NCBI RefSeq assembly: GCF_006345805.1
Contig: NC_043000.1
Span: 27,590,001 to 27,654,000, forward strand
Length of the DNA: 64,000 nucleotides
Reading direction: 5' to 3'
Source: Octopus sinensis
Lineage: Eukaryota
Below, piece after piece: positions 19,085-48,543 of this stretch. A model generated the notes under the pieces. That model saw only the letters and a list, made by a program, of their open reading frames with translations, was not told where the DNA came from and ran no database searches. A program made the position numbers and the translations under genes. Each line of letters opens with the position of its first letter. The stretch's first letter is position 1.

Positions 19085-19271
19085 TTAATACAGGATAAAA
19101 TTTTCGAAACAATTTTATCAATGGCCAGCATATTAAAAAAATACCTTTAAAGGTTAAATTTATAAACAACTTATAAACAAGGGCAAAAGAAAAAAAAATT
19201 CAATGCCGAAGAAAAAAATTTCGGCATATTTGGCATAGAAATTTTTTTATTTTGCCCTTGTTTATAAGTTG
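19085..19271. mobile_element. (TA)n-embedded fold-back element, same family as 48289-48543
   Basis: Inverted arms spanning 19167-19271 (CAACTTATAAACAAGGGC / GCCCTTGTTTATAAGTTG); homologous body ATGGCCAGCATATTAAAAAAATACCTTTAAAG. Confidence 0.75.
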
Positions 19272-20309
19272 TATATATATATATATATATATATATATAC
19301 ATATTCACGTGAATATATATATATATATATATATTCACGTGACCTCTTTATTATGACCAATAAGAAATTTTAGGCGCGATACCAGCCAAATTTTAACATC
19401 TCTGGAGCCTATTTTCTTACCCCAACACCAACTTCCATTCAAACATTCACTTGACCCCTTTATAATGACCAATCAAAATTGTATTGACCATTGTCCACAA
19501 GAAATTTTAGGCGCGAAACCAAGCAAATCTTAAACAACTCTGGAGCCTCTTTTTTCACATATAAGAGACAGAAAACCCAACATAAAGTCAGATAAGAGAA
19601 AAAAATCAAACAGAAAGGAATTCTATGTCACTCAAAATATCTTTTGATAAGCATAACAAATGCGCAACCGGTAAACTCTTACTTTTTTTTATTCTACACT
19701 GAAATCTGACGTTGAACTTTTCCACAAAAAACTGTATATTACACGCTTTTACTAAATATCTTATTCTGAAACAGAACACTGTAAAATACTCTTACTTTTT
19801 TTCTTATACACTGAAATCATTCACAAAAAATGAACATTGTATTCTAACCCAATTTTTCCCTTTTTTTTGTTTAAAAAAAGAACTTTCACCTAATTAAATA
19901 CACTCTCCCTTACTTAAAGCATTTTGTCAGCATTTTCTTCAGTTCCTTTATATATATATATATATATTTACTTGTTTCAATCATGTGACTGTGGCCATGC
20001 TGGAGCACCGCCTTTAGTCGAGCAAATCTACCCCAGGACTTATTCTGTGTAAGCCTAGTACATATTCTATCGGTCTCCTTTGCCGAACCGCTAAGTTACG
20101 GTTGTCAAGTGATGTTGGGGGATAAACGCAGACACACAAACATACAAATGTATATATATACATATATACGACGGGCTTCTTTCAGTTTCCGTCCAGCAAA
20201 TCCACTCGCAAGGCTTTGGTCGGCCCGACCCTATAGTAGAAGACACTTGCCCAAGGTACCACGCAGTGGGACTGAACCCGGAACCATGTGGTTGGTAAAC
20301 AAGCTACTT

Positions 20310-22329
20310 TATTTCATAAATTTGTCATATAGACAGTACAAAGAACTTTGCGGGCTGGACAAATACATTAATGAATGAAAATGAAATATAATGAATAAAT
20401 GAGAGACGAAACCCAACACCCGCCGATTGGATTTTTCTCGAAGACATATTTTCTTTTTTTTTTTTAAATCAATATGAGGTTTCGAACCTCTTACAAGGAG
20501 AGGGCACTAAAACCTCTTACTTAACATGTTTTCTTTTTTTTTCTTTCTTAAAGCACAAAATTGAGGTTATAAACCACTGCAAAATAATCCAATAAGATGA
20601 GGTTTCAAACCCTTTAACGAGGGTCTTTCACCGCCTACTCTTCCATATATCCATCGATATATTCATCATTATCTTCAATGCCGCTTGAGTTCCTGTATCC
20701 CGCCATTTCCCATTCCTCACTCATGTAGGACATGTAAGTCGTGTAAGGGCCACTCGGCCAAATCCTTTAAGCCTTTCCCACAAGGGAAACCTTATGATCT
20801 CCACAGCTATCTGCGGAAGCCATTCGGGATCCCGTGTGAAGGGCATATCTACTGTTTCTTTATGTTCTTCTACTATTTTTTCCACCTCCCCGCCCTTCTA
20901 GAAAAAGATAATTAATTGATCATCTTTAAGGGTGGGGGTGGTTTCTTCCACCGTGGAGGCACAACTTCGGGACATGCAGTCGGCACATCATCTCCCCGCT
21001 GAGATGACCGTTCTTCTTCCTTCTTTTTTATCTTTTCTTCCTGGCTTCGGGAGAGTGGAGCTCTTCCGCTTTGTCCGGAGACTCTCCCCAGCCTTCCGAA
21101 GCCTCAGATACCTTCGGCGGGCAACTATTGTTGCCCGCCTTCTTCCTTTTTAATCCTTTTTGAGTTGAGGAGGCAAAAGCCTCCTCGACAACATCTACCT
21201 CTCCCTTTGACCGGGTAGGGGAGGTGGCATCTAGTGACTGTTCCAGGACCTTACCATGGTCCTGGGGCAGTTCCTTTTAATGTGGCCTGGCTGCAGGCAC
21301 GAGTGACACCGGATACCTGCAGCCAGCCATTTTCAAGAAGTCTGGAAAAACCAGTTCTGTTGCGGCCGATGGGGTTCACAGGGTCAAAATCGCTTTTGAC
21401 CCTTCCCAATCGACAGCCGGCAATACTCTTACATTTAAGAGCCTGGGCCCGCCATACCCCAGTCACCGTCGGATGGTATCATCAATCCAATCCGCTTCGG
21501 TGCCTGGGAGGAGCCCACATACCCAGACTCGTATTAATTTTCTTCCACAATATAACGGGAGTAACAGAATTTCCTTGCCTTCTAAAGGCTGACTCGCAAA
21601 CTGGCGATCCTTTTCCCCGTTGTCAAACAGCAACCATACGGTTGCATGTTTGACAGCACGGGATATATATTTTACAGAGGACAAATGTTCTTTAAGTTCA
21701 TTTTTTATGACTTGTTTTGGGAAGACGGTGATGGAATTAAGAACTTTAGAATTCGTTCTAAGTACCATCGCCTTCTCCGCCATATCTTTTAACCATTGCT
21801 TAGGCGAGTTAATTTCCCACTCTGAGATAGAGTTTTTCTTTTTAAGTTCCTTCTCTGCCATGTCAAAAAACAGTTCAAAAGTAGTTCAAAAGACAGTCTG
21901 CCAAAAAATTAAACCGAATAAAAATAAAACAAAATAAAAGAGGAGGGGAGGAAACTAAAATTAAAGTAATGAAAAGAATGAACCAAAATTTAGAAAGAAA
22001 GAAAAATAGAAGAAGGGAAAAGTAAAAGAAAAACTTTACAAATAGCACAGACAGGAAATCCTTTGTATAATACTCCAAAAAGTTAATCCAAAAGGTAATC
22101 CAAATGGCTTATTCTTATTTTTCTGGTGAGATACGCCCACTAGAATTCACAAGAAGAATTTTCAAAAATATTCTCAATTCACCGTTACGGTGATGAGAAT
22201 CCAGTATTTTGCCTCACTATAGCGAGCCATAATAAACAATTTTTCTTTTTGTTCTTTTTTTTCTATTCACGGAGCCGAAACTCACATAGGCTCAATGTAA
22301 CAGTCCAGACCAACTAGTGTTGCATTCTG
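20310..22329 (-). mobile_element. Tx1/L1-like non-LTR element carrying only a gag-like ORF1 relic
   Basis: 16-bp TSD GGTAAACAAGCTACTT (20294-20309 and 22330-22345); A-rich 3' end; no APE/RT motifs seen. Confidence 0.75.
20640..21861 (-). pseudogene. Frameshifted ORF1 with CCHC zinc knuckle
   Basis: ORF 21463-21861 (MAEKELKK..); CHSCLQPGHIKRNC (CX2CX4HX4C) at 21267-21308; then a basic segment EGWESLRTKRK. Confidence 0.7.
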
Positions 22330-22744
22330 GGTAAACAAGCTACTTACCACACAACCACTCCTACGCCTATATATTTACATAATTTTAAATTACATTTCAC
22401 TGCTGCGATGCGCAGTTCTTTTCTTTTTTACCATTTCTTTAAACCTTTATGTTGTTGCTGCTAATATTTCCGATACAGAGAGAAAGTGTAGACCAGGGTC
22501 CGTAAAAAAAAACTTTGCCTTCGCTCCTAGTACGGTCGCTTTCTCGATATTGTTTTTCTTTATTATTATAAAAATAAACAATGGTAGGCAAGAAAAACAG
22601 TTTCAAAAGTTCGGTGTCAATACAGAAACAGCAAAGATATTAAAAATATGCACTGCAGAAAATAATGTAAATATATGCAACAACTGGATCGCTTGACAGA
22701 AATAAAGTTATGTAAATGGTAGCGATAAGCGTATGAAGTTATTG

Positions 22745-46455: not shown

Positions 46456-47861
46456 CTTTGAGACGTTACCAGTTTCACTGCGGTACCAGCAGAATCTAAC
46501 CAACAGGACTAGAAAGTGGTTTCATGATATCGGCCAAACAATGGGTGCTTCTAGAACACGAGCTACTGCATTACTTACAAGCTCTATGGAGTATTGTACA
46601 TTCAATATGTTGGTCGTTTACCGTTTTAGTGTATTTGATAGGAAATCTGACGAAACAGCGTATTAGTCAGAGCTGTCAAGCAACGCTTCAGTTCTTTATG
46701 CTAACCTCGAATTATACGCCACACGCACACATACATAGTGATAGACATTTATTCATAAACTTTAAACCATTTTCTTTTCCACGGAGTCACTGACACATTC
46801 ATAAAAATGAGATCAATTTCTACCACTACATATTGTCCGTCCTTGTAAATATATGTACGATGTACGTTTTATTTAGAAACAATATTCAAAGATATTCAGA
46901 GAACTTTTCACATATTTCCTCGTAAATATTCGTTTTAGAAATTTATAAATATCATTGACTTAATACTGAATATACTATGGCAAGAATAGCAAATAATAGT
47001 TATATCATTATTAATATGGCTACATATCTAGAGCTTCGAATGGTTGCAGTATTAGCGAAATTTCCAAATTCCCAGACAGTAATTATTGCTACATTTAAAC
47101 TTCGTCTGCAAATTGATATTGTGGTTCGAGCAGTTTGTATAAAGTTGAATGACTGCATCGAAGCAAACGGCATAGATGAAGTCGTATAACCGGCGTACAT
47201 ACGTCAACAAGCAAACGTAAACACAAATACACATGCGTAATAATATATCGTCTCATCCGGCTTCCTCTTATGCTGACGTTGCTTCGATGACCACCCTGTT
47301 CCTTGCAAAACAAAATACACTGGCATAGAAGTACCCCACTTTTTGTTATCTCTGTCAAGAACCGAATGGACGTCGAAGGATCTTCAGTGTATGGGCTTAA
47401 TGGATCAGGCAAAATATATTATTAAAATTTCTTATATGCAGGAGTCTAGATGTGTGTATTTTTGTCTGAGTGATTTTTCGTGACCTACAAGCATTGTTTG
47501 AACATAGGCTTTCATATAGATTATAGTATTTTCTAAAGAATCACCAAAAATTTCAAGGAAATCTATAATATATGTTCATTTTCCTAATAAAAGCACACAG
47601 TAGCCATTAGGTTTGAAGATTTATTGAGTGGAGTGCCTTGATAATTTATTTAATCCTCAAATTTGTGTGTGTGTGTATGTGCGTGTGTGTGTACATATTC
47701 ATATACACTCATATATAAACATCTGTAAATATAAACGTTGAAATGTTGGGATATCTATCTATCTATCTATATATATATACATATATATATATATATGCAT
47801 ACACATATATATATATATATATATATACACATATATATATATATATATATATATATATGTA

Positions 47862-48166
47862 TATATTGGCAGGGCTGGCCTGCTAGGTAGCCGGCCAGAA
47901 TGCTAGAAATAGATCATAAACGATCAAACTACAAGGGAAATTCTCTAGAGGAAGAATTCTTGCTGAATTCTTCCTCTAGAGAATTTCCCTTGTAGTTTGA
48001 TCGTTTATGATCTATTTCTAGCATTCTGGCCGGCTACCTAGCAGGCCAGCCCTGCCAATATACACATATATTTGAATTTTCTCTGACTCCTCAGATTTTT
48101 TGAATGCTGGACTACTGGTTTTAAATTGATATTAAAATTAATATTAATTTATCTCCCTCAATTTTT
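47862..48166. mobile_element. Fold-back element: perfect 98-bp inverted arms (47862-47959 and 47965-48062) plus unique tail
   Basis: 5-nt loop TTGCT; (TA)n on both sides; right end CCCTCAATT. Confidence 0.85.
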
Positions 48167-48288
48167 TATATATCTATATATATATATATATATATATATA
48201 TATGTATATATATATATATATACATACATATATATATATATATATATATATATATATATATATATATATATATATATATATATATATC

Positions 48289-48543
48289 TAATTGAGGATA
48301 AAATTTTTTTCGAAAAAAATTCTTTTCCCAAAAAATTTTATCAAATGGTCAGCATATTAAAAAAATACCTTTAAAGATTAAATTCATAAACAATTCATAA
48401 ATAAGGGCAAACGAAAAAAATTTCAATGCCAAATATGCCGAGAAATTGGACATATTGTCCATTAACCATTAATGGACAATATGTCCAATTTTTCGGCATA
48501 TTTGGCATTGAAGATTCTTTCGTTTGCCCTTATTTATGAATTG
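48289..48543. mobile_element. Fold-back element: ~75-bp arms (48391-48465 and 48469-48543)
   Basis: 3-nt loop CCA; (TA)n on both sides; homologous to 19085-19271. Confidence 0.85.

Follow-up and report, generated by a model that had tools for sequence, protein, structure and literature searches.

Among the systems described so far, EN+ Penelope-like elements (PLEs; Naiad, Hydra, Neptune and Penelope/Poseidon; PMC8557442, PMC3846280, PMC11167929) come closest to the fold-back copies analysed here. Their literature describes inverted, 5′-truncated copies with a tail at one end and (TA)n targets, and it includes families from Octopus (PMC8557442). The preference for (TA)n is documented for Naiad, Hydra and Neptune (PMC8557442), and new PLE insertions have a median length of 128 bp and a microsatellite target (PMC9977147). 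How the inverted copies are built is stated there to be unresolved (PMC8557442): palindromes at inverted junctions have been taken as self-priming (PMC3846280), and with purified PLE protein reverse transcription starts at two sites that flank the tail (PMC11167929).

Related or partly similar layouts are found elsewhere. Non-LTR retrozymes represent non-autonomous PLE derivatives with tandem units and a type-I hammerhead (bioRxiv 10.64898/2026.07.22.740005, PMC4209133). Within the Helitron2/Helentron group (HINE, DINE-1), HINE are defined by asymmetric terminal inverted repeats (ATIRs) of 8-15 bp, the inner of which lies 20-60 nt from the end (PMC3627910, PMC4067079).

Layout and assignment of the fold-back copies

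The window, i.e. the whole 64-kb stretch of Octopus sinensis DNA analysed, contains two copies of a fold-back element, which we named A19 (the 19-kb copy, 19085-19271) and A48 (the 48-kb copy, 48288-48543) and refer to as family A. Their shared layout is directly visible: (AT)n, a single-copy tail, an arm, a centre, the inverted arm and (TA)n (Table 1). Both copies have (TA)n on either side, and the flanks of the two loci are unrelated. The left arm is not terminal in either copy, since the tail of 82 nt (A19) or 103 nt (A48) lies beyond it. Aligned with each other, the tails show 74 matches and 8 mismatches, and their AT-rich stem-loops are not stabler than shuffled sequences (z -0.2 and -0.6). 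The right ends read GTTG and ATTG. No additional family A copy was found within the 64-kb window, and a search of prokaryote-only genome contigs gave 0 matches.

Table 1. Positions of family A and other elements in the window (a dot marks unstranded features)
Feature	Position	Strand
End of canonical Helitron	12275
(AT)n, left flank of A19	19073-19084	.
A19 single-copy tail, 82 nt; presumed 3′ end, minus-strand reading	19085-19166	-
AT-rich stem-loop in A19 tail, 9 nt short of terminus	19094-19119
A19 left arm, lacking one 9-nt unit that the other three arms have	19167-19213	-
A19 centre and right (tail-less) arm	19214-19271	+
6-bp palindrome in A19 centre	19216-19221
(TA)n, right flank of A19	19272-19334	.
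Element E: inverted partial unit and tandem units of about 478 nt each (about 2.4 units); (TA)n flanks	23608-25117	+
Inverted partial unit of E	23608-23978
Element C: 22-bp arms, 311-nt interior, 96-nt tail	34116-34566	+
Element B: layout as family A, opposite orientation	47862-48163	+
(AT)n, left flank of A48, common to B	48175-48287	.
A48 single-copy tail, 103 nt	48288-48390	-
AT-rich stem-loop in A48 tail, 9 nt short of terminus	48297-48342
A48 left arm, 75 nt	48391-48465	-
A48 junction: 3-nt loop within 10-bp loopless palindrome CCATTAATGG	48466-48475	.
A48 right (tail-less) arm, 71/75 complementary to left arm	48469-48543	+
(TA)n, right flank of A48	48544-48666	.
48-aa RT-like remnant	52350-52496
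Element D: tail end beside (TA)n, weakly similar to A/B/C tails; cut by window end	63800-64000	-

Family A shares with EN+ PLEs the head-to-head inverted arms with a one-ended tail, a palindrome where the inverted arms join (10 bp long in A48 and in B, but no more than 6 bp in A19), and very short truncated inserts in a (TA)n target without readable target duplication. It differs in its tail, which at 82-103 nt is two to three times as long as the 30-40 nt published for PLEs (82-128 nt across the window elements), and in having no ORF or hammerhead; the canonical hammerhead is missing from Naiads, too. Judged by this architecture, the A copies are likely 5′-truncated PLE insertions. From the T-richness of the outward strand (46-50% T) and by analogy with E, we infer that the tail is the element's 3′ end. 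The fold-back layout itself is already known for the PLE class, to which the A copies would add a member.

No RT/GIY-YIG ORF was found in or adjoining A19 or A48, as is expected for a truncated stub. A strict hammerhead scan found no motif in either copy, but it was insensitive, because it recovered only one of the four motifs of E. Twelve short probes against the PLE consensus file of PMC8557442 gave no matching 3′ end among the 13 of 32 places listed. Rfam matches at E-values up to 1 all stayed below the gathering score among the best 150 of 163, nearly all of them microRNA models on simple repeats or hairpins. The RT-like remnant, presumably akin to PLEs, had no Pfam or database match and is not linked to the A copies.

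Other known arrangements were compared. LINE-1 twin priming also produces inversions during target-primed reverse transcription; it inverts a non-overlapping 5′ segment, whereas the A copies hold the same segment twice as a hairpin. A canonical Helitron1 carries a 5′ TC, a 3′ CTRR and a GC-rich hairpin, in contrast to the right ends GTTG and ATTG, and a MITE with inverted repeats at both termini does not accommodate a left arm 82-103 nt inside the element. HINE have 8-15 bp repeats and insert between T residues in a T-rich target, and the A copies do neither.

Element B has perfect arms (98/98), a 5-nt loop beside a 10-bp palindrome and a 101-nt tail. Its tail is homologous to that of C (z 9.8); when the interior of C was treated as an extension of one arm, z was 1.8 for either side and did not discriminate between them. 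Element E, with its tandem units and four type-I hammerhead motifs (three on the plus and one on the minus strand), fits the non-LTR retrozymes. Its two-end layout is that of the A copies, one end exceeding the other by 128 nt. Its heads differ by some 50 nt, and its sides are 371 and 1,139 nt long. The A copies, unlike retrozymes, lack both tandem units and a hammerhead. In sequence they are linked only weakly to E (local score reached in 5/500 shuffles; global z 0.7 and -1.8), less than the tails of A are to those of B, C and D, a link that is itself weak and uneven (z 3.1-3.5 in three pairs, -0.1 to 1.6 in three). A profile search (nhmmer) of the A tails against the B, C and D tails gave no significant cross-family match. 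In 19 local comparisons of arms, only two, both within F, were strong, followed by B-F (z 3.4) and A48-E (z 3.1). Because arm homology across families is weak, we do not claim one sequence superfamily.

Mirrored and private differences between the arms

The earlier note on this DNA had described arms that match within a copy, three differences between copies that are mirrored on both arms, unlike central junctions, and right arms ending at the same base ahead of (TA)n. All of this is borne out, and a four-arm alignment contains a fourth mirrored difference just inward of the three. Among its 44 gap-free columns, 33 are constant, four are mirrored within the copy, six vary in a single arm (two of these being misalignment beside a 9-nt indel) and one has three states. 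Columns that group left with left and right with right arms, or that cross, number 0/44 each. Each of the four arm 17-mers (at 19167, 19255, 48391 and 48527) occurs only once. Independent mutation would yield the mirroring with P between 4e-8 and 1.4e-4 at 3-9% divergence per arm. The sequence pattern of the arm has four matches, with 0.04 expected.

Both copies fold into hairpins far better than shuffled sequences (z -9.8 for A19 and -17.9 for A48; 0/200 shuffles each), and in both the pairing is imperfect: 71/75 positions pair in A48, and the A19 arms show 42 matches, four mismatches and two gaps. Each copy carries 3-4 private unpaired substitutions, and A19 the 9-nt indel in addition. The outer 23-24 bp of the arms are perfectly paired in both copies, and 7/7 private substitutions lie inward of them (P 0.03-0.09), which hints at a constraint on the arm ends. 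Between A19 and A48, 6/7 transitions are A/G on the outward strand.

Mirrored changes in the arms (4/44) are as frequent as between-copy changes in the tail (8/82; Fisher p = 1.0), so the arms have not been slowed in the way expected of a hairpin that needs two compensating hits. An 11-nt direct repeat spans the arm/tail boundary; in either copy, its A/G state agrees with that of the two arms.

Formation of the second arm

On balance, we consider it probable that the A copies are 5′-truncated PLE insertions whose second arm was made at insertion by snap-back self-copying of the cDNA. The four steps we infer would be as follows. A GIY-YIG endonuclease/RT supplied in trans would nick (TA)n and prime cDNA at the tail end; synthesis would stop early, often at a short palindrome; the 3′ end of the cDNA would fold back and be extended on itself; and this snap-back copy would stop where the arm meets the tail, at a TATA-like stretch, and be joined to the opposite side of the (TA)n target. 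After insertion, each arm would acquire private mutations. Snap-back from diverged templates would place the variants of one template on both arms and thus produce mirrored differences between insertions. It would also let the heads meet within a few nucleotides, as they do in A48 (3 nt apart), B (5 nt) and A19 (about 9 nt). The plus strand of both A copies has the polarity of snap-back as a single continuous strand. A loopless palindrome of at least 10 bp is present at two of six junctions (A48 and B; 6 bp in A19). In the background, 59/57,291 centres have one, for a post hoc P of about 0.002.

Of the formation routes proposed in the earlier note, an arm made anew at each insertion is the best reading: it fits the PLE literature and arms that are not slowed, while two copies also fit two master lineages. 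In place of the preferred internal priming site proposed with it, the shared outer end may be a stop-and-join site at a TATA-like stretch; such a stretch lies at the tail-less ends of A19, A48, B, C and E. The unlike centres of A19 and A48 could also have arisen later, if a hairpin tip was deleted. Apart from the long tails, the weak sequence links and the lack of an ORF, a hammerhead or a consensus match, two observations sit uneasily with snap-back by a PLE: the co-variation of the 11-nt direct repeat with the arms at the arm/tail boundary is left unexplained by it, and in a sample of two copies the private substitutions avoid the outer 23-24 bp.

An unlikely alternative, though one of some weight, is a fixed hairpin in a non-autonomous DNA element, Helitron2/Helentron-like or TA-targeting and MITE-like, with two masters, arms kept paired in each master line by selection or conversion, and later loss of the tip in A19. 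With one arm terminal, the other subterminal and a stem-loop 9 nt short of one end, the A copies formally resemble Helitron2/HINE ends, and mirrored changes have their counterpart in the compensatory changes on record between related Helitron2 elements (PMC3627910). The A repeats, however, measure 46-75 bp (98 bp in B), whereas ATIRs have 8-15 bp; they are four to eight times longer and fill nearly the whole interior. Their inner arm lies 82-103 nt inward instead of 20-60 nt, the target is (TA)n and not TT, and the tail stem-loop is no stabler than shuffles. The CTRR end is missing as well, unlike in the canonical Helitron of the window, our control, which ends in a hairpin and CTAG. Octopus vulgaris has active Helitron and TIR families (PMC13282606), and plants have TA-microsatellite-targeting Mutator-like elements; among these MuTAnT, a MITE, resembles the A copies in (TA)n on either side and long inverted repeats, and differs in that the A inverted repeat is terminal at only one end (PMC4486113). 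The perfectly paired outer 23-24 bp would suit selection on a fixed hairpin; arms that diverge no slower than the tail argue against it, as do B and C, whose tails are homologous, yet whose arms measure 98 and 22 bp.

A second route within PLE biology appears distinctly improbable, namely that the arms are separate cDNAs primed from both nicked strands at two preferred starts and joined head to head. PLE protein, a predicted dimer, does cut and extend both target strands in vitro, and its two starts bracket the tail (PMC11167929). In E, the unequal sides and heads about 50 nt apart in extent would agree with this route, but independent truncation would rarely put heads 3-9 nt apart, as in A19, A48 and B.

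Homogenisation after insertion, the other route named in the earlier note, would have both copies start from the same hairpin, with cruciform repair or intra-strand conversion then evening out their arms. The outer 23-24 bp, which pair perfectly, and the co-varying direct repeat nearby are in line with it, but continuing homogenisation is disfavoured because private differences persist in each copy (3-4 unpaired substitutions, plus the 9-nt indel in A19), and it leaves both the shared outer end and, in several families, the one-sided tail without explanation; we regard it as very improbable. Chance or an assembly fold-back artefact is scarcely credible: the informative sites number only four (random 2+2 patterns would all fall within the locus with P 0.012) and the arms of B are perfect, but the A arms have diverged and end at the same base in both copies between unrelated flanks.

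Implications for the octopus genome

The layout is known, and two copies are too few to settle the mechanism. A broader reading, which we hold to be doubtful, is that the genome carries a long-tailed (82-128 nt) Penelope-type group in which a hairpin is made anew by cDNA snap-back whenever an insertion takes place. If this were true, mirrored changes at a single locus would document in the genome which template had been used and could separate snap-back from two-strand priming, and the 6/7 A/G transitions would be compatible with A-to-I edits in the template RNA that became fixed in both arms. In one survey, octopus stood out for its share of loci with the capacity to form double-stranded RNA and gave the strongest signal of hyper-editing, and lizard Penelope was heavily edited (PMC5625713). 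Inserts of the kind described here produce long, near-perfect hairpins, which under the broader reading would feed the double-stranded RNA editing pool of the host. How inverted PLE copies form can be tested cheaply at the genome level by setting arms against each other within a locus and from locus to locus, and a genome rich in repeats and in short fold-backs is well suited to such a test.

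Mirrored arms in two fold-back copies

The two copies of family A, A19 and A48, share one layout: an (AT)n flank is followed by a tail, an arm, the centre and the inverted copy of the arm, with (TA)n on the far side. Their tails are single-copy, 82 nt long in A19 and 103 nt in A48, and in their alignment 74 positions match and 8 differ, with two indels; each contains an AT-rich stem-loop that stops 9 nt short of the terminus and is not more stable than shuffled sequences. In A48, 71 of 75 arm positions are paired and the 3-nt loop is part of a 10-bp palindrome. The A19 arms align with 2 gaps, matching at 42 positions and mismatching at 4; a 9-nt unit is absent from the left arm, and the shorter centre of this copy could result from later deletion of a longer tip. 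Compared with shuffles, folding z-scores are –9.8 (A19) and –17.9 (A48). BLAST and pattern searches of the window revealed no third copy (4 arm matches versus 0.04 expected), and each of the four arm 17-mers has a single site, at 19167, 19255, 48391 and 48527 respectively.

The earlier note had described arms that match within a copy but differ between copies, with both right arms ending at the same base, and our analysis confirmed both observations. Among the 44 gap-free columns of a four-arm alignment, 33 are constant, 4 carry changes mirrored on both arms of one copy, and none are grouped by side or crossed; the remainder are single-arm differences (six) or three-state (one). Assuming independent mutation starting from one hairpin, the probability of at least four mirrored sites is 4e-8, 8e-6 and 1.4e-4 at 3, 6 and 9% divergence per arm, and 0.004 at 15%. 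The tail-less right arms of A19 and A48 stop at an identical base, the point where the internal copy runs on into a TATA-like stretch.

Origin of the second arm

On the plus strand, both copies run from the target (AT)n through tail and arm in antisense, cross the loop and continue along the second arm in sense orientation to the target (TA)n, an order that one continuous strand could produce. Synthesis of a target-primed cDNA would stop early, the cDNA would snap back and copy itself, and the self-copy would be joined to the target at a TATA-like boundary. Such a snap-back, which we favour as the source of the second arm, would account for the mirrored variants and for an outer end that is fixed; it would also explain why the heads are nearly symmetric in A19, A48 and B and why palindromes lie at the junctions. 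Of the earlier proposal that the second arm is regenerated at insertion or homogenised afterwards, the first part is thus preferred.

Inheritance of fixed hairpins from two DNA-element masters would also explain the mirroring, and compensatory changes between related Helitron2-type elements are reported (PMC3627910, PMC4067079). These elements have 8–15-bp asymmetric repeats, a 3′ stem-loop and T-rich targets; the ends of family A differ from those of Helitron2 in repeat length and target, and also from those of Helitron1 and MITEs, and we regard this origin as rather unlikely. Two-strand priming of PLE origin would explain the two ends and the asymmetry of element E but leaves the symmetric heads unaccounted for, and appears improbable. 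Later conversion of the arms is very doubtful, since private differences, present on one arm only, show that nothing currently holds the two arms identical. Chance or artefact is hardly credible.

Mirrored differences in the arms (4/44) are as dense as differences in the tail (8/82; p = 1.0), giving no sign that a requirement for compensating changes has slowed the arms, although the numbers are small. Two features count against a simple reading: all seven private substitutions lie outside the outer 23–24 bp (P 0.03; 0.09 if a cluster is scored once), and an 11-nt direct repeat spanning the arm/tail boundary (19156–19177 and 48380–48401) has, within each copy, the A/G state of both arms. Snap-back does not explain this shared state. 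Six of the seven between-copy transitions are A/G on the outward strand (p 0.02–0.06), a weak signal that might stem from editing of the template RNA (cf. PMC5625713).

Elements of similar layout in the window

A hairpin scan and inspection of 168 (TA)n flanks identified further elements of comparable layout (B–E).

Features of the window
Feature	Position	Description
A19	19085–19271	fold-back copy
A48	48288–48543	fold-back copy
B	47862–48163	98/98 perfect arms (fold-back 98 bp); 101-nt tail; tail-to-tail with A48 across a single (TA)n
C	34116–34566	22-bp arms; tail homologous to B tail (z 9.8)
D	window edge	tail visible
E	23608–25117	inverted partial unit, then ~2.4 nearly identical tandem units of 478 nt
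Older inverted-plus-tandem element	13205–13790	hammerhead-like core, minus strand, near 13360–13395
One family	12288–12497, 12790–12972, 33844–34046	variant hammerhead-like core; T-rich ends adjoin (TA)n
Local hairpins	44586–44740, 55242–55430	one with simple-sequence arms around (TA)n, one diverged
Canonical Helitron remnant	11454–12275	Pif1 2B domain, 3′ hairpin, CTAG end
Tc1/mariner-type element	40670–42621	long inverted repeats, DDE_3 transposase remnant, SINE-like insert
LINE-type reverse transcriptase remnant	17653–18000	RVT_1, E-value 9e-7, slightly below curated cut-off
Reverse-transcriptase-like remnant	52350–52496	48 aa
Tandem arrays	9693–11451, 14809–15750	periods 425, 166, 463 nt

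Element B is probably young. Element E carries four type-I hammerhead motifs, three on the plus and one on the minus strand, has unequal ends (one 128 nt longer) and is retrozyme-like. Loopless palindromes of at least 10 bp occur at 2 of 6 junctions versus 59 of 57,291 background centres (P ~0.002, post hoc), a count omitting a seventh stretch, the head of C's left arm, which likewise carries one. The motif CCTCA(A/T)TT, also picked post hoc, lies at a (TA)n-adjacent end in four of its seven occurrences (A48, B, C and D, not A19). Similarity of family A to the other elements is weak (z 3.1–3.5 in three pairs, –0.1 to 1.6 in three; A48 versus E, 5/500 shuffles), and a profile search against their tails gave no significant match; what they have in common is mainly layout. 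The older inverted-plus-tandem element shares a short motif with the B arm (z 3.4, one of 19 comparisons). The 48-aa remnant, which we take to resemble PLE reverse transcriptase, matched nothing in Pfam and database searches.

Relation to Penelope-like elements

A19 and A48 resemble truncated PLE insertions and probably also behave as such. According to the sources cited here, endonuclease-bearing PLEs are heavily 5′-truncated, often with an adjacent inverted copy, carry a 30–40-bp tail at one end and target (TA)n, with Naiad and Hydra families listed for Octopus (PMC8557442); inverted junctions bear palindromes interpreted as self-priming on an antisense template (PMC3846280); both strands of AT-rich DNA are cleaved and extended in vitro, with two start sites bracketing the tail (PMC11167929); new insertions have a median of 128 bp and a microsatellite target (PMC9977147); and O. 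vulgaris has 31 recently active Penelope-like families (PMC13282606). Background on PLE terminal repeat regions (pLTRs) and hammerheads is given in PMC8969392, PMC4209133 and a retrozyme preprint (bioRxiv 10.64898/2026.07.22.740005).

We do not assign the two copies to PLEs on sequence, because neither an ORF nor a hammerhead was found in them, 12 short probes against the PLE consensus sequences of PMC8557442 gave no matching end at the 13 of 32 places listed, and their tails are two to three times the published length. Titles and abstract openings in the PLE-structure literature, a coverage mostly outside subscription journals, revealed no use of arm clustering by locus as a test. The second-arm idea is a reasonable rediscovery of an already described PLE feature; new here are the long tails and the use of arm comparisons within and between loci as a test.
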